NCBI RefSeq assembly: GCF_013177435.1
Contig: NZ_CP053627.1
Location: 960,001 to 992,000, forward strand
Reading direction: 5' to 3'
From: Xylella taiwanensis
Lineage (GTDB): Bacteria; Pseudomonadota; Gammaproteobacteria; Xanthomonadales; Xanthomonadaceae
DNA: 32,000 nt
Part shown: one piece after another, positions 4,816 through 25,598 of the stretch
How the letters are laid out: each line of letters starts with the position of its first letter
Position numbering within the stretch: the first letter of the stretch is position 1
Position numbers and translations under genes: made by a program
The notes under the pieces: generated by a model
Database searches by the model: none
What the model saw: the letters and a program-made list of their open reading frames with translations, nothing else
What the model was told of the DNA's origin: nothing

Positions 4816-4890
4816 GGGCGGTTAGCTCAGCGGTAGAGCATTGCCTTCACACGGCAAGGGTCGCAGGTTCGATCCCTGCATCGCCCACCA
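4816..4890 (+). tRNA. tRNA-Val (anticodon CAC), CCA encoded
   Basis: Hand-folded cloverleaf. The acceptor stem is GGGCGGT/ATCGCCC (one G-U pair), the D arm GCTC/GAGC, and the anticodon stem TTGCC/GGCAA. The anticodon loop is TT-CAC-AC, and the T arm is GCAGG-TTCGATC-CCTGC. The discriminator is A, followed by CCA. Confidence 0.92.
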
Positions 4891-4893
4891 AAT

Positions 4894-4924
4894 GAGGCTC
4901 GTAAGTAGGAAGAGAGCCTTTTTG
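4894..4924 (+). terminator. Rho-independent terminator after tRNA-Val
   Basis: Stem GAGGCTC (4894-4900) pairs with GAGCCTT (4914-4920). The loop is 13 nt and a T-run follows through 4923. Confidence 0.7.
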
Positions 4925-6169
4925 TTAAGTGCATTGCACACTAATACGGCTGTTATCGCGTTGGTGGTGATGCGGCTTTTTTAGGCATTTTCGGTGTGGA
5001 ACCGTAGCAGGCAAGTATTCAAGTTCGCTACGTTGCAAAGTGCGCTATTCCTGAGCACGTGATGCGTTGATGTCTTTGCGGTCCGCTTGATGGCAACTTG
5101 ATATAAGTTGGCAGTTATAGGCTGTGTTTGGGGCAGCCGATCATGCTGTAAGTCTTAATTCTAGGGGCCATATGGATTCTGCTAGGTCTCGGCTTCACGT
5201 GTGGAGATGAGTTTGCCTACTGGTTAATCTGTCGGCTGATTTTTATTCTCTATGTCGTTATGCCGTTTGGATTTTGGCAGCTGCATTTGTTGTTTGTATC
5301 TTTAATGTGTTGACGTACAAAGCACAATTCTGGTGCGTGGTAAGGCACCGATGGTGTGTCCTGGATGGCTTGAGAGCCTCACATTCAGCAGCGGCATCCA
5401 ACGTTGATTGCTCGGTGGTGCAATCCAGATGGCTTGCAAAGTCCTTAAGCAGCCAGACTCTTTAATCAGGTGTGACTTTACCTAAGTAGGACACTGAATG
5501 AGTGGGGTAACGCAGGCAAACGGATTAAACGCTGGACCATTCGGTACATCTCGTTGTGTTTTCCGAAGCGGTTGGTGATTGCCATGCTTGCAACGGCTGA
5601 ATCGCCGATGTTAAGGATTTTTAGCGCGGTGGGCGTGAGCAATGCCTTGAGGCGGGATCCTAACCCGACTGATACCGTTTTATCAGCACTGGCTCATAGT
5701 GATGGTGTCACCTGACAGGTGCTCATTGGCTGCTGATCGGTGATGCATAGGTGTTGGCTCCTGGTGTTGTGTGAGTGCCTGATTGGCCTTGTTACATACA
5801 TCGGGCATACACGTTGCTGAGTTGCAGGTTTGTACTTGAACAGACCTGAATATGCCGAAGCCGACAGAGAAGAAATATAGAACGATGGATTGGTCAGCGG
5901 ATAACACAGCACTCAAACTCAGAGGCTCACAGAGTTTCTCTGGCGAGACAGGCAGATCACATAGTTGTCCAGTAGTGGCGGCAAACATGGTGTCCTACGT
6001 AGCCGGTGCTCTGTTGTCATCGCTGGTTGCATTCTGTGATGACAGTGAAGGCCCTCGTTGGCATCGAAGGTTCGGAACCCGTGTCCGGAGGATATTTCCA
6101 GTTGAAACGTGACCCCCATGCGGATTGAACGAGCAAGGTTGTTTCAGCATGGTGATGCGTGCGAACGGT

Positions 6170-6847
6170 TCATCTCCCCTGTGGATTAAGCACGGTGGCT
6201 AATGCGGCCGAATGCATCCCTGGAGTATGTGGTAGGTGCCCCCAATATGGTATTGGCAGGCGTTGGCGTAGCATCACCAGGTTCTCCTCAATACGTACCA
6301 TGTGTGGGTCGATGGTGTTAGCGATCCAGCCGATGCAGCGCAGCCCGTCAGCCATGATCGCCGCTGTGCTCAGGCGCGCGTGGTTCAGGCACCCTAGACG
6401 CAGGCCGACGACCAGTACGACGGGTATATCCAGGGCGCGCACCAAGGTGGCTTGATCGAGTGTGGCGTTCAGCGGTGTGGCCCAGCCGCCCACTCCCTCG
6501 ACGACGACCACATCGGCCTGTGCGCGTAACTGGGTGAATGCAGTGCGCAGCGGTTCCAGCGCCAGAGTGATCCCAGCTTCGGTCGCGGCGATTTCAGGCG
6601 CCACTGGTGCCGGGAGTGCGTAGGGATTAATCAGATCGTAGGGTGGCGTCGGATCGCTGGCGCCTTGCAGTGCCAGTGCATCCGCGTTGCGCCAGCCTGT
6701 GGTGCTATAGGTGCAGCCACTGGCGACAGGCTTCATGCCAACCGCGCGTTGGCCACGTGTGCGCAGTGTATGCAGCAGGGTACAACTGACGAATGTTTTT
6801 CCGATACCAGTATCAGTACCGGTGACATAGATGGCGGACAGGGACAT
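6170..6847 (-). CDS. bioD: Dethiobiotin synthetase
   Basis: 225-aa ORF. The N-terminal P-loop YVTGTDTGIGKTFVS, GMKPVASG, and VVVEGVGGW match the BioD family. It stands alone, with no other bio genes beside it. Confidence 0.88.
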   Translation of the reverse strand: MSLSAIYVTGTDTGIGKTFVSCTLLHTLRTRGQRAVGMKPVASGCTYSTTGWRNADALALQGASDPTPPYDLINPYALPAPVAPEIAATEAGITLALEPLRTAFTQLRAQADVVVVEGVGGWATPLNATLDQATLVRALDIPVVLVVGLRLGCLNHARLSTAAIMADGLRCIGWIANTIDPHMVRIEENLVMLRQRLPIPYWGHLPHTPGMHSAALATVLNPQGR

Positions 6848-7067
6848 GAGGTGTGCTGAGTGAAATGGGAAAGCATCTCAGCATATCCGCAGTGACTGGC
6901 TGTGGCTTAAAGCACAGCTTTGGCCGAGCAACATGTACTGTCACCGACGCTATCAAAACCAGCAGGGATCTGGTCGTGGGGTATTCGAAATGGTCGGTGA
7001 ACTTGATACAGCAGATCAACGGCGATACATGGAAACGGCTTAACGTGGCTGAAAACATTCTGCGAGG

Positions 7068-7079
7068 TAGTTACAACAC
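7068..7079. repeat. Left terminal inverted repeat of the IS relic (TAGTTACAACAC)
   Basis: Exact reverse complement of 7914-7925 (GTGTTGTAACTA). The outermost TA could equally be a TA target duplication. Confidence 0.7.
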
Positions 7080-7913
7080 GCTGGAGGTGGCATGAACCAG
7101 GGTGTGTCGATCCTGGGTTTGAAACGGATACCAAACGGAGGCCTGCTCATACGATTGCCAGCCATCCCGCAATTGGAGCGGAGCAGATGCAGGCGATGAG
7201 CATGATATCGAGTCTCTCGCATCTGGAGCAGCTGGGGTCATCACCCTTAAGTCTTTGCAATAGGCGTTCGACCTCATGACGGCGTTTATGCATCTTGCGA
7301 TCCTATGCCCAAGGTACGATGCGCGTGCACAGCAGCGGCACGGCGGGATCAACTCCACGTCACGTGCCGGCGGGCGGACTTGCTCGCCTGCATCGGCGCG
7401 GTTCATGAGCACGTGCAACAGGTGATTCTGTAGCCAAAACCGCTGAGCAACAGCAACTTACTACTTTCCAACACATCGTGTGCTTGTCCAAGCGCTAGAG
7501 AGCAGGTAATAGCGCGCGCATGTCCGCCGTGAGGAGGTGATGCTTGGTGTTCCACCCATCATGCAATGTGCCGCTAGCCCGATGGACTGTTTGAGGAGGT
7601 GTGCCGGTGTCGTCCGGATGCATCTTCAGACTGATACTCTTTAGCGACACAGTCTGGATCTCGATCTACATGACTTGCACGTGCTGGAGTGGCTCGAAGG
7701 CTCGATCTAGGATGCCAGGCGATGCTCATTGATTCATGCGTGTGTAGATCGTTTGTCAGTGGTCGCAGCGCTTAGGCAAGTCACACCATTGGTATTGAGG
7801 AGTCGATGTGCTTCCAAGGCGGGGTACTGAGATTTTTACAGTGCGATATCACTACTTTTCTTGGCGCGTAACATCAAAGGCCAAAGCATATTTTGAGCTG
7901 CTTAAAAACTAAA

Positions 7914-7925
7914 GTGTTGTAACTA
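7914..7925. repeat. Right terminal inverted repeat of the IS relic (GTGTTGTAACTA)
   Basis: Exact reverse complement of 7068-7079. It lies just beyond the N-terminal end of the transposase remnant. Confidence 0.7.
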
Positions 7926-8555
7926 GTGTCTATATTTTTGGTGATGACCTCGGCGATTAGACAGTGAAAGATAGGTGGGAAGCTGCTGAACCTGTTGCAT
8001 CATGTCTTCGGCGTCCATCCTGCATCGGAACATTGTGCTGCCATTAGCAACCGTGTTTCTTCCTGAAAATTTTTAGCTCAGCCAGTTCCACCGCCATGCG
8101 GTGAGTCCAATCCCTAACCTGAAATGTTGAGCCATTGTGTTTCTAATAGGTTCTGTCGGTTTGGGATGGCTGAATAAAACGCCCAAAAGCACAGACCCTC
8201 ACGACTATGAGAGATGTGTGCCAGTCTAGCCGTATTGCCTTGTCGTGATGTTGATGTGCTCAGATGCAGCTTGAGATGCGCCGCTGCGTTTTTTGCTGAG
8301 CTTTCTTGAGACCTGTGTTTGTATGTGCTGCGACTGCTCTTATCTGCTGTATCGTTAGCGCCACATGGGTGGGTGTGTAGCTATCTCGACGGAGCGCAAA
8401 GAACAGTCCCTGGTTGTAGCGTTGGGACCCCTCTACACAGCGTTGCGTGCCGAAGCCACACAGGCCAGTTTGGATGCTGTCTGGCACGGGGAATAAGAGG
8501 GGAGGTGATTGCTTGCATACAAACCTTAGCCGGCTCGCAGAGGAGGTATGTCTGC

Positions 8556-9383
8556 TCAGCGTTTCGGATCAAACTCACGCGCGTAGCCGCTGTTTACGAT
8601 GACTTTTTGCAGGGCATGAGCCACTTTGATATTGCCTGCGACCAAGTGGCAGCTCTCCGGGCCTTTGTCATCCATGCGGGGTGCATCGGCGCCCTTGAAG
8701 TCACACACGTAACCTCCGGCTTCGCGTACCAATAGCATCCCCGCAGCGACGTCCCAAACCTTCACCCCAGCCTCGAAGTAGGCGTCTGTGCGGCCGCACG
8801 CGACGTAGGCCAAGTCCAGTGCGGCCGAACCAGTGCGACGGATGTCTTCAGCCTGCATCAGCAATGCATCCACGCATTTCAGTTGTGCATTGGCACGGCT
8901 GCGTTCACGTGGCGAGAAGCCAGTGTTCAGGATTGTGCCGTTCAGGTCCTTACGGTTCGCTACGCGGATGCGGCGTTCATTGAGTACGGCGCCAGCACCG
9001 CGGCTGGCGGTGAACAGTTCGTTGCGCAGTGGGTCGAAGATGACGGCGTCTGTAGGTTCACCGTTCTCGACCAATGCAATCGATACGCAGTAATGCGGGA
9101 AGCCACGCAAGTAGTTGCTCGTACCGTCCAGCGGATCAATCACCCACATGATCCGGCCATTCCCTTGTAACCCGCCTTCCTCGCCAAGGAGGCCGTACTC
9201 CGGATAAGCGCGCTTGAGTTCCTTGACAATGACCTTTTCGGCCATCGCATCCACGTCGCTGGCATAGTCCATGAGGGTTTTCTGTACGACTTGCAGCGTT
9301 TCCAGCTTATTAATGTGCCTCAATAAGACGTTGCCGGCGGAACGGGCGGCTTTGACCATGATGTTGACGGCGGGTTTCTGCAT
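8556..9383 (-). CDS. suhB: Inositol monophosphatase family protein SuhB
   Basis: 275 aa counted from the ATG at 9383 ([20 protein letters not shown]). IMPase motifs are present: [19 protein letters not shown], and [20 protein letters not shown]. The listed 414-aa ORF is an upstream read-through extension. The gene is divergent from trmJ, as in enterobacteria. Confidence 0.9.
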
Positions 9384-15850: not shown

Positions 15851-15859
15851 GGGGGGATG

Positions 15860-16343
15860 GAAGTGATTTCTTTCCTTGCCTGCGGGAATGACCCTGGCGG
15901 CGATGCTGGCCACAATGGTCGCCGAACACGGCATGGATGCAGCCATGTCTCGCTGTCTGGCGTGGTGTTCCCCCACACCGCTCAGACAGAAGCATCAGAT
16001 CTCAACGCCCTGCTGTAGCTGGCACGGCGTGACGCTGTCATTGCTAAACCTGCACGCAGACAGCGGATGTTTGCCAAGTGCGGCATGGTGAACCAACCAC
16101 TCGACACCACTGGGTACGCGGTCTGGTCCTTGCTCGCCCTGGCGCGATCTAAGTGGACAACAGGCGTGAATCACAGAGGGAGACACTGGATGCGATGATC
16201 TATGTTCGCATCGTGCTCAGGGGCAGCGGTGAGCCACGCGTGGATCAGTGCATCGTTGCGCTTGCAGAGACCCAGGATTCGCTGCAGCGCACTGGTGACT
16301 ACGTCGGTCCAAATCCGAGCAGGCACCTTCCAGCGTCACGCAT
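15860..16343 (-). pseudogene. Possible relic of metW (methionine biosynthesis protein MetW)
   Basis: An ATG overlaps the metX stop (TGATG, 16341-16345) and opens MRDAGRCLLGFGPT*. Across shifting frames there are collinear weak matches to MetW as I remember it: M-R-x-D, ARIWTD versus SRVLDLG, EHDANI versus EIDADNI, FTPVV versus FDVVV, IRC..G.AMT.S versus WRC..GRMPVS, and WGNTTPD versus WYNTPN. The evidence is weak. Confidence 0.3.
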
Positions 16344-17455
16344 CACAATGCGTCCAGAAATTCCCTCACTGGGGGGCCGAATCCCTCGACATCCACAAGG
16401 AACGCATCATGCCCCTGCGGCGAGTCAAGGCCCAGGAATGTGGCCTGCGTACCACCGCGGCGCAGCCCTTCGGCAATCTGTTTTTGCTGCTGTACTGGAA
16501 AGAGGATGTCGGTATGGGTACCGATAGCCAGGGCACGTTGGATGCGGATCATGGCGAGTCCTGCAAGGATGTCCCCATTGGCGTACTCGGCTACATCAAA
16601 CCAGTCCATCGAGCGGCTCAGGTACAGGTAGCAATTCGGGTCGAAGGTGTGCACGAAGCGGCGTGCATGGCTTTCCAGGTAGTTTTCGACTTGGAATTCC
16701 AGTCCAAAGGGATTGTCGTTGGTTTGATCCGAATCCAAGCGTACCCGGCCGAAGCGTCCGTCCCATTCCAGCGCTGAGCGGTAGGTGATTACACCGAGTT
16801 TGCGTGCCATGCGCAGCCCCGACTCTGGGTAATGGGTATCGTCGTAGTGACCACTTTTCCAATTGGGGTCCAAGCGGATCGCTTCGCGTTGCAGCGAGCG
16901 GATAGCGATCGAAAACGGTAATGCCTGCGCACTGCCGGAAATATTGATGTGACGGCGGGCGATGTCGGGATGTAACAGCAGGATGGCTAGCGCGGTCATC
17001 CCCCCCATTGAATTGCCGATCAGGCAGGCAAGCTGGTCGATGCCGAGCGCATGCACGACTTCGATGGCGGCATTGGCACCGTCTTCGATCGAAAGTTCGG
17101 GAAAGTCCAGACGATATGTAGCATTCGTGATGGGGTTGAGCGACGCAGGGCCGGTAGATCCTTTGCAACTGCCTAGCGAATTGACGCAGACCACAAACCA
17201 ACGGTCTGTGTCGATGGGTTTACCTGGACCCAGCATCGACTCCCACCACCCTGGTTCAGGGTTGCTGTTATGGCGTGCGGCATGGGCATTGGGTGACAAG
17301 CCAGTCACGATCAGCACGGCATTGGTGGCGCTGGCATTCAGCCGGCCCCATGTTTCGTAGGCGATGTGGGCGCCGTGCAGGTGTCCGCCACGCTTCATCG
17401 GGAATGGAGAGGAAAGCGCATGGAACCGGCTGCCTGGAGGGATAAATTCGGTCAT
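16343..17455 (-). CDS. metX: Homoserine O-acyltransferase (MetX; acetyl or succinyl specificity not decidable from sequence)
   Basis: 370 aa with an alpha/beta-hydrolase fold. The nucleophile elbow is LIGNSMGGMTAL. Typical MetX blocks are present: IAYETWG, HAARH..PGWWE, FVVCVNSLGSCKGSTGP, and GHDAFL. Confidence 0.9.
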   Translation of the reverse strand: MTEFIPPGSRFHALSSPFPMKRGGHLHGAHIAYETWGRLNASATNAVLIVTGLSPNAHAARHNSNPEPGWWESMLGPGKPIDTDRWFVVCVNSLGSCKGSTGPASLNPITNATYRLDFPELSIEDGANAAIEVVHALGIDQLACLIGNSMGGMTALAILLLHPDIARRHINISGSAQALPFSIAIRSLQREAIRLDPNWKSGHYDDTHYPESGLRMARKLGVITYRSALEWDGRFGRVRLDSDQTNDNPFGLEFQVENYLESHARRFVHTFDPNCYLYLSRSMDWFDVAEYANGDILAGLAMIRIQRALAIGTHTDILFPVQQQKQIAEGLRRGGTQATFLGLDSPQGHDAFLVDVEGFGPPVREFLDAL

Positions 17456-17891
17456 TGCAGAATTCTAGCCATGTGGCTACCTAAGTATTGAGTGAGGTGT
17501 GTCTCACCCAATGTGGGATGTGTGGTTGTTGTGCACCGTGGTGGTTGGGGATCCTCATATCGCCGACGGTGCACCCATGTTGCCTGACGTTTGATGTCGG
17601 AGCAGGGGGGCGAGAGGAAAGCAGCTCGAGTAAGTAAGACGTTCAGAGGGTGCTGCCTGTGCGACGAGCTGCGGCAGATTTTCCCATCGCAATGCTGGAG
17701 TGTGAGTGCCACCGGCTTTGTTGCTGGCAGAACCACTGTCACCGGAGCACACGCTAGGGTTTTGGTGTGTGGCTGAGCATGACTGTTGCGTGATAGATGG
17801 GCAGGTTCTTCTACCCGCTTTAGGTTTGAACGTGTCTGGTTTGGTATCAGGTGGATGCTGTTATCAAAGACGCTCTGTAGCGGCGTTTACT

Positions 17892-18098
17892 TTAGGGGGG
17901 CCGATCACGGCCACAGATGTTGACGAGCTGGGGGTGTGCGAAGACGGGGCACACAGCGCTGCTTTGCGGTGCAGGTGTGAAAACGTGGTTCCTTCGCATG
18001 GTATCGCGATCGTGCAGTGGTGTTGGATCACTGATCAGTGGTGCCGAAATGGCAACAGGCATGGCCGTACACCGCAGGAGTGCAAGCGTGTGTTTCAT
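17892..18098 (-). pseudogene. ccmH: ccmH relic (N-terminal part only; CXXC degraded)
   Basis: The ATG overlaps the ccmG stop (ATGA at 18095-18098), as in intact ccm operons. A signal-like N-terminus is followed by ..DPTPLHDRD..SSAVCPVFAHPQ.., where CcmH carries LRCPxCQNQS. The second Cys is replaced by Phe. A stop follows after 68 codons, and I saw no clean continuation. Confidence 0.5.
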
Positions 18099-18694
18099 GG
18101 TGCTGGATGCAATGCTGGTGCGGCGGTCGGTGAACGTTCGATGTCGGCGAGTGCCGGTAACAGCTTGTGTTCGATCATGTCCTGATTTAGAGCGCCGCTA
18201 TGATTCCAGCGCACGATGCCACGTCCATCAATTAAGAATGTTGCTGGTGCCGTGGTCACGCCCCAATCGATGGCGGTTTTTCCTTCCGCATCTGACACCA
18301 CGAGTAGATACGGATTGCCCAACTGCTCGAGCCACTGTAGTGCATCTTCCCGCCGGTCTTTCCAGTTGTAGCCGATCACACGCACGCGCTTGCTCAGTGC
18401 GAACTGAGTCAGTACCGGCTGTTCGGCGGTGCAGGCCGCACACCAACTGCCCCAGATGTGGAGCAGATAGGGGGCACCGGCCAGATCGGTGCTGCTGATT
18501 TCCATTGAGGGATCGTGCAGCAGTGGCAGTGAGAACGTTGGTGCCGATTTTCCGATCAGTGCTGAGGATACTTGGTCGCGTGCTGTATCCCAGGAGCGCA
18601 TGACGGCGAAGGTGAGCAGTGCGATCAGGATCAGCAATGCAATGGCACCGGCTAACAGGAGGGGGACGGGTAAGCGGCGGGGTGAATCAGACAT
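18095..18694 (-). CDS. ccmG: Thiol:disulfide oxidoreductase CcmG/DsbE (membrane-anchored thioredoxin fold), intact
   Basis: 199 aa that aligns end to end with E. coli DsbE from memory. Matches include the TM anchor, SALIGKSAPTF, the active site WGSWCAAC, LGNPY, and GVTTAPATFLIDGRGIVRWNHSG. There are no stops or frameshifts. Confidence 0.88.
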   Translation of the reverse strand: MSDSPRRLPVPLLLAGAIALLILIALLTFAVMRSWDTARDQVSSALIGKSAPTFSLPLLHDPSMEISSTDLAGAPYLLHIWGSWCAACTAEQPVLTQFALSKRVRVIGYNWKDRREDALQWLEQLGNPYLLVVSDAEGKTAIDWGVTTAPATFLIDGRGIVRWNHSGALNQDMIEHKLLPALADIERSPTAAPALHPAP

Positions 18695-20403
18695 GCGAGG
18701 ACTCCGGGTGATGGCGGAACCGGCGATCGGCGGCAGCGATCAGCCCACCCAGGGCATTCGTGCTGCGCCCAGCCAGATCCAGCGGACGAACGGTTTGTAG
18801 TGTGCCTGAATTACCCATGCTCCATCGCCGCGTGATGCTCCCAGAACAACGTAAACATCGCTGCGCACGGAGACCGGCTTCGGTCATGACTGGGCCACTA
18901 CCGGCATCGCGGCGTTGCTCCGTCGTCAGGGTACGTGGTGGCCGTCCGTCGCGTTGCAAGCTCAACGGCGTGCGGTCAACCAAGGAGTGTAGGCCTTGGT
19001 ATTCGAACAGAGCGTCAAAGCGCAAGGTGATGTGGCCGAGGGTGAGGGCGACTTCGCGTTGCAGGCGGCGTGTTGCAACCAACAGAGCGCCAGTGAATAT
19101 GCCGATTGTGCCAAGACCATGCCCAGCGTACTGGCGTTGGGGCGTGATCGGGTAGTGTGCCAGTGCAACCAGATGCAGCGCAGTGTCCTCAGCAGTACCC
19201 ATGCCGTTGCGGCCACGCTGAGCATGGTTTTCTAACGGTGCCGCGATGCCGGCCAGGCCTGCTGCGGCCAGTGCTAGTGCGGCCCACGGTGTTAGCAGCG
19301 CCAGTGGTTTCGAGGGTTGTTCGCGTTGCCATCGGGTTTTCAGCAACAGGTTGTTGACCAGCAGCAGCATTTTGCGTGAGACCGCTGTAAAGCGTTGCTG
19401 CACATCAATCGTGATAGGGGCCAGCTGCGGCGCACACTGTGCATACAGCAACAATGCACCGCCCAGCAATGTCACCATGAACACCAGAATAAATGCTCCA
19501 CGTACTAGGTCGGTGGTAAAGCTGTGTACCGAGGTCAACACGCCTATGTGTGCACATGTGCCGAGCAGTGCCAATGCAAATGTGGTGCTTGCCAGCAGCA
19601 GCGTCCAGTGCGTGAAGCTGCCGCGTGTGGCGGTGATCGCTGGAGAATGCATGAGTGCCACACTGACCAGCCAAGGCATGAAGCTGGCGTTTTCCACAGG
19701 ATCCCAGAATCACCAGCTTCCCCGACCGAGTGCGTAGTACACCCACCCGCTGCCAAGCGCGATGCCCCGGGGCAGCCGTTCCGATGCGATGTGGCTCCAG
19801 GGCCAGCTTCAGCGTCGCCAGGCTGGATCTATCCGCCTTTCTAGCAGCACCGCGACGGCAAACACGAATGGCACTGCGAAACCGATGTCGCCTGCATATC
19901 ACCGGGGCGGGTGCACCATCATCCCGGGATCCTGCAACAGTGGATTGAGGTCATGACCCTATGACGTGGCAGGTAGCAGACGTGCGCATGGATTGGAGGT
20001 CAATACAATCCATGTGAGGAATCAGCCAGCACGCCAAGCAGACGTGCGCTCAAGCGTTGCTGGGAGTGTGTGCGAATACAAGACAACGGTGGCGGTCCAT
20101 CATGCCAATCGCAACATCCATAACAGTAGCGATCCTTCGTGTGCATCCCCCACGGCGATATAGCGTTAGAACCTTTGGTCGCAGTGAATGGGAGTGCGCG
20201 GCGACATACTGCCCTGAGAAGTTGTTGACGAGGAACGCATGGGTGAGCGGCGTGAATACGCCGGCCACTAAACCCAGGTGAACCTAGGTTGCCGGGCGTG
20301 TGCCGTCCATCCAGTCAACGTGTCCGCGCGCTGCGCCACCCAAGGCAAGCAGTCCCTGCAGCAGAGCGAGGATCAGCAGGATCTGGCCAAATTCAGGCAG
20401 CAT
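18687..20403 (-). pseudogene. ccmF: ccmF (heme lyase/heme-handling subunit) pseudogene
   Basis: Collinear CcmF matches are MLPEFGQILLILALL (ATG at 20403), AHEGSLLLW, and [42 protein letters not shown]. Further downstream are SFTHWTLLL, HSFTTD, MTEAG, and ALGGLIAAADRRFR. In-frame stops lie at 20284-20286 (TAG), 20100-20102 (TGA) and 19710-19712 (TGA, inside the WWD motif). At least one frameshift lies between 20268 and 20160. Confidence 0.9.
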
Positions 20404-20528
20404 GCGGTGTCGTGGTGAATGGGGGTGCAGTGCGTGATTAAGGAGTGCAGCAGGCGTGCCAGCCGTTACGTCAGAGCGTGAATCTGGGGAAGCATGACTA
20501 CCACAACGCTGCGGTGGTGTGGCGCCAT

Positions 20529-20971
20529 TTAAGGCGCTGCTTCTGGGATGGGGGTGTCCAGGATGGTGTGCTGGCGCTGCGTTGTTGGCATCTTGCTGCC
20601 CACTTTCTTTGGTGTATAGGTCTCGTTGTGCTGCGCCAATATGGTTTCGGTAACAAAGACGCCTGCTATATCTGGCCGGTCGCGGTCACCGCTTGGCCTT
20701 CTTAGAAGAGGTCTGGGAGGATGGGGACATAACGCACCTGCAGGGGTGTGTTGCCAGCGGTGACGCTGCAGCGGTTTTCCAGCATACCGCAGGTGCGCTG
20801 CAATGAATCCTTTGCGACCATGCTGCCGCGCCTGAAACGTATCTGTTGGCCGGCGTCGCCACGCAATACGTCCGATGGCATGTACAGATAGGTGAGCGGG
20901 CGTTGCAGCGCCATGATGGTCAGCGTGGTTGCCGCTGCGGCCGTCAGCAGCAGCGGCGGTATGTATTTATC
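20529..20971 (-). pseudogene. ccmE: ccmE (heme chaperone) pseudogene
   Basis: The translation reads ..[72 protein letters not shown], then shifts frame to ..GVFVTETILAQHNETYTPKKV. No start codon remains; a TAG sits where the ATG is expected. A TAA at 20702-20704 replaces the Arg of LPDLFREGQ. At least one frameshift is present. Confidence 0.85.
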
Positions 20972-21143
20972 CTATGAGTGTGTTGTCGATAGCAGGCGTG
21001 TTGTGGCGCTCGCGTAGACGATGCTGTTCCATCTGGGCACGTCGCTGTGCAGTGCGTCGTTGCCGGCGTACTGCGAGCAAATCCCACAGCAGGATGAGCA
21101 CGAATACGGCATAAGCGCCGATGACATAGGGTAGGTGGGTCAT
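20967..21143 (-). CDS. ccmD: Heme exporter protein CcmD (58 aa), apparently intact
   Basis: Below the size cut-off of the ORF track. Translated by hand: MTHLPYVIGAYAVFVLILLWDLLAVRRQRRTAQRRAQMEQHRLRERHNTPAIDNTLIG*. It has a single TM helix and a basic tail typical of CcmD. Its ATG overlaps the ccmC stop (TGATG). Confidence 0.65.
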   Translation of the reverse strand: MTHLPYVIGAYAVFVLILLWDLLAVRRQRRTAQRRAQMEQHRLRERHNTPAIDNTLIG

Positions 21144-21505
21144 CACTGCGACTCCAGGCGTTCACTCGCCCAATGTTGGTTGGCATTCGAGTATAGGTTT
21201 TCGGCACGGGTGCGACTGAGCAGCGCGCCAAGGAACCAGCACGTGGTTGTTGCCAGCATCAACCACAACGTGGTCATGTTGTAAATGCTTGATGTGCCTA
21301 GCAGGCGCAGTGCCTGACCCTAGTGCAAAGGATGTGCACGGTTTCGCCTATGTACTGCTCTGGCGGCAATACGACCCTTGCCTGCCAGAGTGCGGGGGCT
21401 ATCAGTGCCAGCACAGTGAAATAGCACGATGGTGCCCAGCGGGCGGCGCACTGATCAAAGGTCGGCGGTGAGCTAAGCCGATGGAGTCCACGGACAAGGC
21501 TGCAT
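21143..21505 (-). pseudogene. ccmC: ccmC pseudogene (N- and C-terminal stubs; central part deleted)
   Basis: ATG at 21505 gives MQP, then a frameshift leads into LVRGLHRLSSPPTFDQCAARWAPSCYFTVLALIAPALWQARVVLPPEQYIGETVHIL. The last 44 codons, MTTLWLMLATTTCWFLGALLSRTRAENLYSNANQHWASERLESQ*, are in the original frame. The total is 363 nt against roughly 750 nt for intact ccmC. I could not find the WWD motif region. Confidence 0.8.
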
Positions 21506-21518
21506 CAACAACGGTTCT

Positions 21519-22213
21519 TTAACTGAGTGAGATACGGATTGCGGTGGTGGCTGTCAGTGGTGCCAGCACCACACCCAGAGCCAAGCCGGTGCCAAGGAGT
21601 AACAGCGCACTCGTACCGTCCTGGTCTTGCACGGTGGCGGTGATGCTGCCGCTACCGAACACGAGTACCGGGAGGTAAAGCGGTCAGGCCAGCAGTGCGA
21701 CGAGGATGCCAGTGCGTTGCATCGTGACGGTCAGTGCGGCGACGACAGTGCCGAGCAGGCTCAGGAGCGGCGTGCCCAATGCCAACGATGCTAGCAATAT
21801 GGGCAGTTGTTCCTGGGGTCGTCGTAGCAATGTGCCAGTCACGGGGTGATGGCGATCAGCGGTAGCACACTGGCTGTCCAGTGGCATGCCACCCGCACGG
21901 TGATCAGCCAGGTCAGTGGGACGGGTGAGAGCAGCCATTGTTCTATGGTGCTGTCCTCAACGTCGGCGCTGAACAACGTATCCAGCGACACCAAGCCTGC
22001 GAGTAGAGCAGCGATCCACAGCACTGTTGGGGCCGGGTGTGCCAGTGACTGTGGCTTTGCACCAAGGCCGAGGGCGAACAGTATCGCCATCAACAGTGCA
22101 AATAATATGGGTTGCACGGCATTGGTGCGCTGACGTCACAGCAGGCACAGTGCTCGGGTGACGATGGTAGATGAGGTGTGCCGGGTGCATAGGTCGGGGA
22201 TAGGCGCGCTCAT
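21519..22213 (-). pseudogene. ccmB: ccmB (heme exporter permease) pseudogene
   Basis: Full-length collinear match: ..IVTRALCLL*RQRTNAVQPILFALLMAILFALGLGAKPQ..LWIAALLAGLVSLDTLF..STIEQWLLSPVP.., a frameshift near 21845, then ..LASLALGTPLLSLLGTVVAALTVTMQRTGILVALLA*PLYLPVLVFG..AIRISLS*. In-frame TGA codons lie at 22136-22138 and 21684-21686. Confidence 0.88.
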
Positions 22214-22233
22214 GTGGCTTTCTCTAAGTGCTC

Positions 22234-22853
22234 TCAGTGAATCAGGTGGGTGGGCACTGGAAGTGTGGGATGAGCATCGGGTGTGGTGAGGAGTGCGCCG
22301 CCTCCGTTGTGAAGGTGTACAAAGATCATGTGGTTGACGAGGGTGATGCCATCCGGATCCAGGTGGGCGTAGGGTTCGTCTAACAGCCACAACGGTGTTG
22401 GTGATAGCCACAGTCGGGTAAGTATGAGGCGCTTTTTCTGACCGGCTGGCAGTTGCTGGATCAGTGTCTCTCCGTCGTTTGCCAGACCGACGGGGGCGAA
22501 TGCGTCATCTGGTGTCCGTGTGGGGTGGCCGCTGTGCAAGGTGCTCAGCAAGTGCAGATTTTCCAGCGCTGACAGGTCATGTTTCAGTCCTGGGAGGTGG
22601 CTCATGTAGGCGATGAAGTGGCGGCCTTCCGTAGCTGTGGTGTGTTGTCTGTTGCTCTTGATGTACCCGTGATCGCTGGGCCGGAGCCCGGCTAGGGTGG
22701 TTTTACCGATCCCGTTGATTCCCTCTGTATGACGATGGCTGCACCAGCCTTGATGTGGACATCGCGTGGGCTGAGGATGGGTGTTGCGTTGTGCGAGTCG
22801 GTCATGGGATGCGCAGCCAGCAGGGGTGGTGCGGAGGATGGTAGATCGATCAT
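22234..22853 (-). pseudogene. ccmA: ccmA (heme exporter ATPase) pseudogene
   Basis: MIDLPSSAPPLLAAHPMTDSHNATPILSPRDVHIKAGAAIVIQ is followed by a frameshift at about 22725. It resumes at the P-loop GINGIGKTTLAGL, with LPAGQKKRL where LSGGQ is expected, then Walker B LWLLDEPYAHLD and GGGALLTTP*. The length of 620 nt is not a multiple of 3. Confidence 0.85.
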
Positions 22854-23021
22854 CGGGTGGTGGGATTGAAAAACACGGGGCATGCGGTGTATCGCGGCAT
22901 GGGGATGGTATAGGGGCGGCGGCGATACGCACGGTGCGTTTTGCAGCACATGCGGCCGTACCATGATGCACATTCAGTACACTCGTCGCTCTTACATATT
23001 CCGACGAGATACGCACCCGTC

Positions 23022-24170
23022 ATGCAGATCACGACGAAGTTACCTGGTGTGGGGACTACTGTATTCAGCGTGATGTCGCAGTTGGCAGATGAGTATGGCG
23101 CGGTCAATTTAGGCCAAGGTTTTCCCGATTTTCCGGTGCCATTGCGGTTGCTGGAGGCGTTGGAGGATGCGGTACGTCAGGGACACAATCAGTACCCGCC
23201 GATGATCGGTGTGGCTGCGTTGCGTCAGGCGATCGCTGCGAAGGTGCTGCGCTGCTACGGTGCGCAGGTGGATGCTGATGTTGAAATCACGGTCACCAGT
23301 GGCGCTACCGAGGCGATTTTCAATGCGATCCATGCGGTGGTGCGGGCTGGCGATGAGGTGATTGTGCTTGATCCAGCGTATGACTGCTATGAGCCGGGGA
23401 TTGTGTTGGCGGGTGCCCGTGCGGTGCATGTGCCATTGGACGCGGTGAACTTTACGGTGGATTGGGAACGGGTGCGTGGGGCGATCACTTCAAAGACTCG
23501 GCTCTTGATCATCAACAGTCCGCATAACCCATCCGGGGCCATGTTTTCAGCCGAGGATATGCGGGCCTTGGCGGCGTTGTTGGATGGCACTGGGATTTTT
23601 CTGCTGTCCGATGAGGTTTACGAGCACATCGTGTTCGATGGGCGTTGCCATGAATCGGTGTTGCGGTGGCCGGAGTTGCGTGCGCGTGCTTGGGTGATTT
23701 CCAGTTGCGGTAAAACGTATCATTGCACCGGATGGAAGATTGGTTACGCGATTGCACCGCCGCTGCTCAGTGCAGAGTTTCGTAAAGTTCATCAATACAA
23801 CACGTTTACCAGCTTTGGCCCGGCACAGCATGCGTTTGCCGTGATGATGCGCGAGCAGCCCGGGTACGAGGAGCAGCTTGGCTTGTTCTATCAGGCGAGG
23901 CGCGATTGTTTCCGTGAGCAGTTGCTGACAACGAAGTTGACGCCGCTACCGGTGTCGGGTGGTTATTTTCAGTTGGTTGATTACGCAGCGGTCAGTGATG
24001 GGTCGGATGTGGAATTTTCGAGATGGTTGGCTGTGGAGAAAGGGGTGGTCTCGATTCCGTTATCGCCGTTTTATGAGAGTGTTCCAGCCGGTCAACGTTT
24101 GGTACGGCTGTGTTTTGCTAAACATGACATGACTTTGGCGGCGGCGGTCGAGCGGTTGCAACGGCTTTGA
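23022..24170 (+). CDS. ybdL: PLP-dependent aminotransferase, YbdL type (methionine/glutamine-oxo-acid transaminase)
   Basis: 382 aa counted from the ATG at 23022. It aligns end to end with E. coli YbdL from memory: LPGVGTTVFSVMSQLA..NLGQGFPDF, NQYPPM, NSPHNPSG, the PLP-lysine context SCGKTYHCTGWKIGY, and RLCFAKHDMTLAAAVERLQRL. Confidence 0.88.
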   Translation: MQITTKLPGVGTTVFSVMSQLADEYGAVNLGQGFPDFPVPLRLLEALEDAVRQGHNQYPPMIGVAALRQAIAAKVLRCYGAQVDADVEITVTSGATEAIFNAIHAVVRAGDEVIVLDPAYDCYEPGIVLAGARAVHVPLDAVNFTVDWERVRGAITSKTRLLIINSPHNPSGAMFSAEDMRALAALLDGTGIFLLSDEVYEHIVFDGRCHESVLRWPELRARAWVISSCGKTYHCTGWKIGYAIAPPLLSAEFRKVHQYNTFTSFGPAQHAFAVMMREQPGYEEQLGLFYQARRDCFREQLLTTKLTPLPVSGGYFQLVDYAAVSDGSDVEFSRWLAVEKGVVSIPLSPFYESVPAGQRLVRLCFAKHDMTLAAAVERLQRL

Positions 24171-24183
24171 TTGGGAGGACAGC

Positions 24184-24999
24184 ATGCAGGATTTGCGTAT
24201 CACGCTTGTCCAGGGCAATACCCGGTGGCATGACCCGGTTGGTAACCGTCGTTACTATGGTGCTCTGTTAGCTCCTCTGGCGGGCGTCACTGATGTGGCG
24301 GTGTTGCCGGAGACCTTCACCAGTGGTTTTTCTAACGATGCCATTGAGGGTGTCGAGGGGATGGATGGTCCGACGGTCGCTTGGATCCTTGAGCAGGCGG
24401 TGTCTCTGGGGGCTGTGGTGACGGGAAGTGTGCAGCTGCGTACGTCTGAGGGCGTGTTCAATCGGTTGTTATGGGCTGCTCCGGATGGAACGTTGCAGAC
24501 TTACGATAAGCGTCACCTCTTCCGCTATGCGAACGAGCAGCAGCGTTATGTTGCTGGGTGTAAGCGCTTGGTTGTGGAATGGAAGGGGTGGAGGATCAAT
24601 CCGCAGATCTGCTATGACTTGCGCTTTCCGGTGTTCTGCCGCAATCGCTATGACGTCGAGCGTGTTGGTCAGCTTGATTTTGATGTGCAACTGTTTGTTG
24701 CTAATTGGCCGGCGGTGCGGGCTGATGCTTGGAGAACTTTGCTGCGTGCCCGGGCGATCGAGAACCTGTGCTACGTCGTTGGGGTCAATCGGGTGGGGGT
24801 GGATGGTAATCAGTTGCACTATGCCGGGGACAGTGCGGTGATCGATGTTTTTGGTCAGCCGCAATTGGAGATCCACGGGCGTGAACAGGTGGTGACTACG
24901 ACAATGTCTGCACAGGTGCTGGTAGAACACCGTGCGTGTTTCCCGGCAATGCTGGATGCGGATGCATTTGCATTGGAAAGGCCCGGTGTTGATCGGTGA
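24184..24999 (+). CDS. yafV: Carbon-nitrogen hydrolase, omega-amidase (YafV/Nit2 type)
   Basis: 271 aa. The catalytic triad contexts are LPETFTSGF (Glu), YDKRHLFR (Lys) and ICYDLRFPV (Cys). The protein resembles E. coli YafV throughout. Confidence 0.88.
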   Translation: MQDLRITLVQGNTRWHDPVGNRRYYGALLAPLAGVTDVAVLPETFTSGFSNDAIEGVEGMDGPTVAWILEQAVSLGAVVTGSVQLRTSEGVFNRLLWAAPDGTLQTYDKRHLFRYANEQQRYVAGCKRLVVEWKGWRINPQICYDLRFPVFCRNRYDVERVGQLDFDVQLFVANWPAVRADAWRTLLRARAIENLCYVVGVNRVGVDGNQLHYAGDSAVIDVFGQPQLEIHGREQVVTTTMSAQVLVEHRACFPAMLDADAFALERPGVDR

Positions 25000-25088: not shown

Positions 25089-25598
25089 ATGCATCTCAAG
25101 TATTGGGCCATGGCCGCGGCCTTGAGCGCGGTTTTATTGACGCCGCAGGCCAAAGCGGTAGAAGACATGGGTTGTAAGTTGCGCTTTAACTTGGCGGGTT
25201 GGTCGGTGTTCTATAAGACGGCGAGCGGCATTGGTACGGTGACATGCGCTAATGGCATGGTGGTTCCAGTCACGATTAGCGCTAAGGGGGGGGGGCTGAC
25301 TTTTGGTAAGTACAAGTTCATCGGTGGTAAAGGCAAGTTTTTTGGGATCTACAACATCAAGGATGTGTTCGGCACCTATGGTGGCGCAGAGGCGCATATC
25401 GGCATTGTTAAATCTGGTGGTATCCAGTTGGTGACTAAGGGGGATGCGTCGTTGTCCCTGGGCGGGACTGGTAGTGGTATTGATGTTGGTATCGGTTTTG
25501 GCAATTTCGTCATTAAACCGCGCCAATCCGTCCAAAGTAATGTTGTACGGCGTGTGCAGCCGCGCCCGTCAGTCGCGGGTTGCAAGCCGAATACCTGA
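25089..25598 (+). CDS. Secreted hypothetical protein (Gly-rich, probably beta-rich)
   Basis: ATG at 25089 gives the signal peptide MHLKYWAMAAALSAVLLTPQAKA|VED. The mature part has repeated G-x-G/FG segments. I recognise no family. It contains an in-frame G10 tract. Confidence 0.6.
   Translation: MHLKYWAMAAALSAVLLTPQAKAVEDMGCKLRFNLAGWSVFYKTASGIGTVTCANGMVVPVTISAKGGGLTFGKYKFIGGKGKFFGIYNIKDVFGTYGGAEAHIGIVKSGGIQLVTKGDASLSLGGTGSGIDVGIGFGNFVIKPRQSVQSNVVRRVQPRPSVAGCKPNT
25286..25295 (+). repeat. Homopolymeric G10 tract inside the secreted-protein CDS
   Basis: Counted directly as aag ggg ggg ggg ctg, encoding K-G-G-G-L. It is the longest homopolymer I saw in the window. Confidence 0.95.

Follow-up and report, generated by a model that had tools for sequence, protein, structure and literature searches.

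Xylella taiwanensis is a pear pathogen. In a 32-kb stretch of its chromosome (contig NZ_CP053627.1, positions 960,001 to 992,000; hereafter the window), the remnants of the operon for System I cytochrome c maturation lie on the minus strand between ybdL/yafV and metX. The best explanation of this locus, which we regard as highly likely, is that the operon ccmABCDEFGHI lost its function on the X. taiwanensis branch, with seven of the nine genes dead, ccmD left unconstrained and ccmG retained; this account includes the consequences proposed below for respiration and for a leader upstream of ccmG. The data covered were the window and related loci retrieved by protein identity.

Lesions were mapped by tblastn with the CcmA-I proteins of S. 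maltophilia and then by threading the sequence on the reading frames of the intact operons of Xylella rufipogonis and Xylella fastidiosa. Collinear tblastn matches ran from 22835 down to 17950 with frame switches within ccmA, B, E, F and H; CcmC was covered only at residues 3-50 and 186-244, and the S. maltophilia CcmI query gave no tblastn match. Pfam and NCBIfam identified CcmA, CcmB, CcmD, CcmE, CcmF and DsbE/CcmG in fragmentary minus-strand open reading frames (ORFs), and together with tblastn bore out the claim of the first-pass annotation of this DNA that ccmA-H remnants lie in canonical order on that strand. Threading recovered every lesion which that annotation had listed, each at the coordinates it had given, and the coupled junctions were as it had described them: the ccmC/ccmD TGATG, the 8-nt overlap of ccmF and ccmG, and the ccmG/ccmH ATGA are all retained. 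It had also taken the ancestral operon to comprise eight genes; the number is instead nine, ccmA-I, as the intact Xylella relatives carry ccmI. In total, about 30 disabling events (stops, frameshifts and deletions) were counted, leaving ccmA, B, C, E, F, H and I destroyed or deleted.

Lesions in the heme-delivery genes affect each of them. The ccmA pseudogene (22210..22853) retains its ATG at 22853, and has a +2 frameshift at about 22726, immediately upstream of the Walker A motif (GINGIGKT), and an in-frame 12-bp deletion after that motif at about 22697. The ccmB pseudogene (21519..22213) is interrupted by TGA at 22138-22136 (codon 26), a −1 frameshift at about 21837 and TGA at 21686-21684 (codon 177). 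The remnant of ccmC (21143..21500) has about half of its original length: a 22-bp deletion removed the start codon, a TAG is found at 21322-21320, and a 376-bp deletion took codons ~60-185 including the WWD heme-handling motif, a stretch that carries WGTFWDWDPRLT in X. rufipogonis. In the ccmE pseudogene (20529..20970), four lesions lie upstream of the heme-binding His in AQHNETY: the ATG start has become ATA, 22 bp are deleted at about 20950, the frame is closed by TAA at 20704-20702, and it shifts by −1 at about 20664.

Genes of the heme lyase are in no better state. In the ccmF pseudogene (18687..20403) the three reported stops were confirmed (TAG 20286-20284, TGA 20102-20100 and TGA 19712-19710), and seven frame −1 stops were found from 20168 to 19710; codons 1-240 contain eight stops, of which one interrupts the WWD motif (W*FWDPVEN). 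Twelve indels and a 153-bp deletion were mapped in this gene, with +1, +1 and −13 events and the compensating frameshift pairs −8/−7 and −8/−1 among them, and its NCBIfam CcmF/NrfE score was 119 bits against a cut-off of 569 (the intact heme lyase has ~645 amino acids). The ccmH remnant, a 68-codon ORF delimited by tblastn and threading (17892..18098), is disrupted by a +2 insertion at about 17999 and by the loss of 239 bp from within LRCxxC onward, so that the CXXC is lost. Only the last traces of ccmI persist (17842..17912), with ~575 of 645 bp (~90%) deleted. The remnants thus resemble known System I operons (CcmABCDEFGH in E. coli, CcmA-I in Rhodobacter) in that they match the CcmA-H families in canonical order; unlike those systems, X. 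taiwanensis lacks the CcmC and CcmF WWD domains, the CcmE reading frame and the CcmH CXXC, and its CcmA is frameshifted. Because CcmA, B, C, E, F, H and I are destroyed, those domains and motifs included, System I, judged from its genes, cannot function in X. taiwanensis.

The decay is confined to this species. Both the Temecula1-type genome and strain 9a5c of X. fastidiosa have an intact ccmABCDEFGHI between ybdL/yafV and metX, and all nine genes are intact, adjoining ybdL/yafV, in X. rufipogonis, a recently described wild-rice Xylella that is sister to X. taiwanensis (PMC12542735). These operons share chromosomal position, gene order and overlapping junctions with that of the window, to which they are 75-79% identical in DNA; unlike it, they hold nine intact genes under purifying selection. 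More widely, CcmF was free of stops in all 74 other Lysobacteraceae/Xylella loci containing ccmF, and Xanthomonas albilineans, a xylem pathogen with a reduced genome, keeps a full-length CcmF. Since the operon is intact in both other Xylella species, inactivation can be placed on the branch leading to X. taiwanensis, later than its divergence from X. rufipogonis. The first-pass annotation had attributed the loss to 'this lineage'; the decay is real, but its extent narrows to X. taiwanensis, as the operons of the related species are intact and constrained.

The ccmI end of the operon varies among the intact loci as well. Downstream of ccmI, X. rufipogonis has not metX but an endonuclease/exonuclease/phosphatase-family gene and another that is DsbA-like (locus L089, 1-2100), so that this end is rearranged relative to X. 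fastidiosa and X. taiwanensis. The CcmI proteins of X. fastidiosa and X. rufipogonis have ~200-219 amino acids versus 329 in S. maltophilia, with 32-36% identity (loci L083, 8807-9466; L086, 8766-9410; L089, 2180-2824), and a short ORF of 88-99 amino acids comes next; the shortening of CcmI at its C-terminal end may date back to the Xylella ancestor.

Selection was assessed in a three-taxon comparison of X. taiwanensis, X. rufipogonis and X. fastidiosa, in which branch omega was obtained from Nei-Gojobori distances by three-point decomposition and branch-specific substitutions were assigned by parsimony. On the X. taiwanensis branch, substitutions in ccmA, B, C, E, F and H numbered 137/129/155 at codon positions 1/2/3, a distribution not distinguishable from uniform (chi-square P = 0.28); on the X. 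rufipogonis branch the same six genes gave 99/52/159. Individual pseudogenes were similarly flat, with 19/16/22 for ccmA and 57/62/56 for ccmF. Omega of the pseudogenes on the X. taiwanensis branch was 0.40-0.67 (ccmA, 0.67; ccmB, 0.40; ccmC, 0.42; ccmE, 0.56; ccmF, 0.65), that of ybdL, yafV and the adjacent ORF of 169 amino acids was 0.11-0.17, and ccm genes (ccmA-G) on the X. rufipogonis and X. fastidiosa branches ranged from about 0.12 to 0.39. The dead ccm genes thus evolved almost neutrally on the X. taiwanensis branch, and the decay is old, as substitutions are spread nearly evenly over the codon positions. By a simple mixture estimate the operon has been unconstrained over some 25% to 60% of the branch, and the flatness of the codon-position profile points to half or more of it.

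Two ORFs of the operon remain intact, and they differ in what their substitutions indicate. Gene ccmD (20967..21143), recognized by Pfam and NCBIfam, is an intact ORF of 58 codons that seems to evolve as if unconstrained; it is probably intact by chance, because its species-specific substitutions (1/7/3), its omega of 0.49 and its length of 177 bp all fit chance survival. By our estimate, roughly one in three stretches of 177 bp would escape lesions at the local density.

Gene ccmG (dsbE; 18095..18694), in turn, is intact over 199 codons and encodes a thioredoxin-like protein of the periplasm that is anchored in the membrane and has the active site WCAAC. The expected features are present, namely the WCxxC motif in WGSWCAAC, the cis-Pro motif TAPATF and the membrane anchor, and the protein scores 150.5 bits with TIGR00385 (DsbE; cut-off 123.15), between its orthologues from the intact operons (153.9 and 147.6). 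Of the 47 columns with at least 95% conservation across 63 Lysobacteraceae CcmG proteins, 46 are retained, the sole change being V80I. Substitutions specific to X. taiwanensis number 10/0/19 (n = 29); the probability of finding no second-position change among 29 neutral substitutions is 8 × 10−6, and the second-position share differs from that of the pseudogenes (Fisher P = 6 × 10−5). Amino acid changes amount to six on the X. taiwanensis branch versus 17 and 15 on the X. rufipogonis and X. fastidiosa branches, and branch omega is 0.12, the level of the flanking genes. By these measures ccmG is a working gene on which purifying selection equals in strength that on the housekeeping genes beside it, and the earlier description of the operon as surviving 'only' as a wreck has to be given up. 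A functional shift at the glutamate of the CcmG 'APETF' motif (A151 in X. taiwanensis) was considered and rejected, the site being variable in other relatives and not specific to this species.

A long open run precedes ccmG. In frame −1 of the ccmF remnant, the seven stops mentioned above fall within 153 codons (20168-19710), and are followed by none for 341 codons, an open run that spans from the stop at 19712-19710 to the native ccmF stop. Within it, an ORF of 336 codons on the minus strand (ccmF'; 18687..19697) starts at GTG 19697 and ends at the native stop, which overlaps the ATG of ccmG by 8 nt. The encoded protein is not conserved: ccmF codons 241-646 accumulated 35/33/37 substitutions, the open stretch lacks 51 codons, and two of its segments are out of the ancestral frame between compensating deletions (−8/−7 and −8/−1). 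Neutral decay was simulated starting with the inferred ancestral sequence, substitutions following the observed spectrum and indels of the observed sizes falling at random positions. An open run that reached the native stop over 340 codons or more arose in 0.4% of the runs, or in 1-1.8% when only 40-60% of the substitutions were taken as neutral, and a run that long anywhere in ccmF arose in 3.8%. This is suggestive, and ccmF' may be a candidate leader for ccmG, acting by coupling or against polarity: it would be held open so that ribosomes reach the ccmG start, through translational coupling or protection from polarity. A GGAG of its own is present seven bases upstream of the ccmG ATG.

The canonical partner of CcmG in the reduction of apocytochrome c, for which DsbD supplies the electrons, is absent, because CcmH is destroyed, and CcmG presumably serves a task independent of cytochrome c, as a periplasmic thiol reductant. 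The combined proposal, that after the death of System I CcmG was kept for such a redox job and ccmF' was kept purely as a translated leader, a pseudogene fragment being reused as an expression element, is offered tentatively, as the less probable part of our account.

Loss of System I bears on the respiratory chain. With heme delivery (CcmABC and CcmE) and the heme lyase (CcmFHI) gone, no holo-cytochromes c would be made via System I; the bc1/c-type branch, already devoid of a cytochrome c oxidase in this genus, should therefore be inactive in X. taiwanensis, and respiration would run via the quinol oxidase alone. X. fastidiosa is reported to lack any cytochrome c oxidase and to use a cytochrome bo3 quinol oxidase for respiration (PMC7112962), although it retains petB (XF0909) and azurin (XF0557) (PMC3036931). 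As the c-type branch was already peripheral in the genus, its complete abandonment is plausible, and X. taiwanensis may plausibly have given up all c-type cytochromes. No CXXCH cytochrome genes were found within the Xylella loci compared.

The retention of ccmG could alternatively mean that another maturation system, such as an acquired System II (CcsBA), makes c-type cytochromes, System I having become redundant and CcmG being kept as the apocytochrome thioreductase. This would explain why the thioredoxin component alone is conserved; the CcmG relatives ResA/CcsX and HP0377 of Helicobacter pylori serve System II (PMC4491210, PMC5909903), and X. taiwanensis CcmG has NCBIfam ResA similarity. 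We consider it improbable nonetheless: no System II was found in the 32-kb window or in any Xylella locus compared, gain of genes is less likely than loss in a reduced genome of 2.8 Mb, and X. fastidiosa has no cytochrome c oxidase to be fed (PMC7112962).

A still less credible alternative, implicit in the first-pass annotation, is that the entire operon is dead and ccmG, like ccmD, has merely not yet been mutated. Gene ccmG is surrounded by pseudogenes, its known partners CcmH and CcmF are destroyed, and ccmD exemplifies the survival of a short ORF by chance. However, at a lesion density of about 6-7 per kb, a gene of 600 bp would escape with a probability of only about 0.02 by our estimate, and chance does not account for the absence of second-position substitutions, the small number of amino acid changes, the flank-like omega or the conserved family columns of ccmG.

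An origin of the stops and frameshifts in faulty sequencing or assembly, or in laboratory culture of one strain, is effectively refuted in spite of the existence of noisy X. taiwanensis assemblies (one Logan read-assembly contig has four additional single-base deletions here), because two independent complete genomes, CP087686.1 and CP011800.1, are identical across the ccm region, deletions of 153, 239, 376 and ~575 bp are not base-calling errors, and the codon-position pattern is that of long neutral evolution, while an identical CcmG protein is found on 32 contigs and the neighbouring genes are clean. The first-pass annotation had likewise argued from the clean flanks (metX, ybdL and yafV, all intact) that sequence quality was not at fault, and on both points it was right. 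The window is 100% identical to CP087686.1 across 20.6 kb and differs from CP011800.1 over the same length at a single position, ~25295, outside the ccm operon; the 199-residue CcmG, MetX and YafV are identical in sequence among X. taiwanensis genomes.

The noisy contig (L091; Logan SRR11805344) has its single-base deletions at window positions 18880, 18473, 17899 and 17610, which split ccmG and metX into two ORFs each, and fragment calls from contigs of this kind can mimic pseudogenes. It was considered as a closer strain for dating the decay and discarded, since it is otherwise the same sequence as the window and the four deletions were read as assembly noise; a second Logan contig, L092, was discarded for the same purpose because it extends away from the ccm operon.

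Several points weigh against the account favoured here, of an operon lost on the X. taiwanensis branch with ccmG retained. The selection estimates compare three taxa by parsimony and the Nei-Gojobori method, both of which are approximate. The statistic for the leader ORF was computed post hoc, with a conservative P of about 0.02, or 0.04 for any open frame in ccmF. A simple scan found no sigma-70-like promoter in 17400-23200. Finally, we infer the physiological consequence from the state of the ccm genes.

The surroundings of the operon are of a housekeeping kind, with fabF, pabB, mltG, holB, pilZ, tRNA-Val, bioD, suhB, efp, metX, ybdL, yafV, rluB and scpAB in the wider neighbourhood. Downstream of the remnants, metX is intact on the minus strand (16343..17455; from its ORF and tblastn); upstream, the divergent ybdL-like aminotransferase gene and yafV are intact on the plus strand (23022..24999; omega 0.11 and 0.12). 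The one difference from CP011800.1 is a 1-base indel inside the ORF of 169 amino acids at 25089-25598, a gene annotated in CP087686.1 and not in CP011800.1. In X. fastidiosa, a 2,060-bp segment bearing yafV and the ybdL-like aminotransferase gene is missing from the original 9a5c record, AE003849.1 (L085, 891-2950, compared with L086), and present in CP009790.1, whose MetX is identical, and in other X. fastidiosa genomes; either the segment was truly deleted or the assembly of the 2000 sequence missed it.

Directly downstream of metX, X. fastidiosa has pglA, encoding a polygalacturonase (GH28, 544 amino acids; locus L083, 11434-13068). A tblastn search for a pglA remnant found nothing, the gene being wholly absent here in X. 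taiwanensis (window 15857-16343), where ~0.5 kb corresponds to ~2.6 kb of X. fastidiosa downstream of metX; polygalacturonase PD1485 is listed as missing from X. taiwanensis (PMC8176220). Elsewhere in the window, two gene-poor stretches of lower G+C (~0.49-0.52), at 4900-6170 and 6850-8550, lie on either side of bioD and start right after tRNA-Val (4816-4890). They contain no ORF of more than 115 amino acids, no Rfam match and no Pfam match among the ORFs tried, and a phage similarity search of 4890-8560 gave no match; they could be decayed genes or the remnant of an old island. The sole Rfam match in the window was a tRNA, away from the ccm region.

Pseudogene-rich reductive evolution is known in host-restricted bacteria, Mycobacterium leprae being an example, and the X. 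taiwanensis locus resembles it in its erosion in place, with gene order kept and stops, frameshifts and deletions accumulating under neutral drift; it differs in having one gene under normal constraint. In-place operon decay in a host-restricted bacterium is thus of a well-known kind, ordinary reductive evolution with the spared ccmG as its twist. A close parallel to the spared protein is H. pylori HP0377, a CXXC thioredoxin of the CcmG/DsbE family that is likewise periplasmic and membrane-anchored and works without a System I heme lyase, and an example of the multifunctional proteins of this family; it is set apart by a known role, in System II cytochrome c maturation, and by an additional, experimentally shown isomerase activity (PMC4491210, PMC5909903). 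In the searchable literature, no description of ccm or cytochrome c loss in X. taiwanensis was found: the genome paper discusses virulence genes only, counts 132 pseudogenes and mentions neither ccm nor cytochromes (PMC8176220), and ccm loss goes unmentioned in a KEGG-based comparison of Xylella species that came later (PMC12542735).

What the present analysis adds is that the loss is put on a single branch, that a respiratory difference between Xylella species is predicted, and that one gene has been selectively retained. The loss clearly sets X. taiwanensis apart in metabolism from the other two Xylella species. Its respiratory chain should be reduced further than that of X. fastidiosa, itself already limited, and this is relevant to culture conditions, to oxygen physiology in the xylem and to metabolic models. 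The locus also offers a natural experiment on the role of CcmG once no cytochrome c maturation machinery remains.

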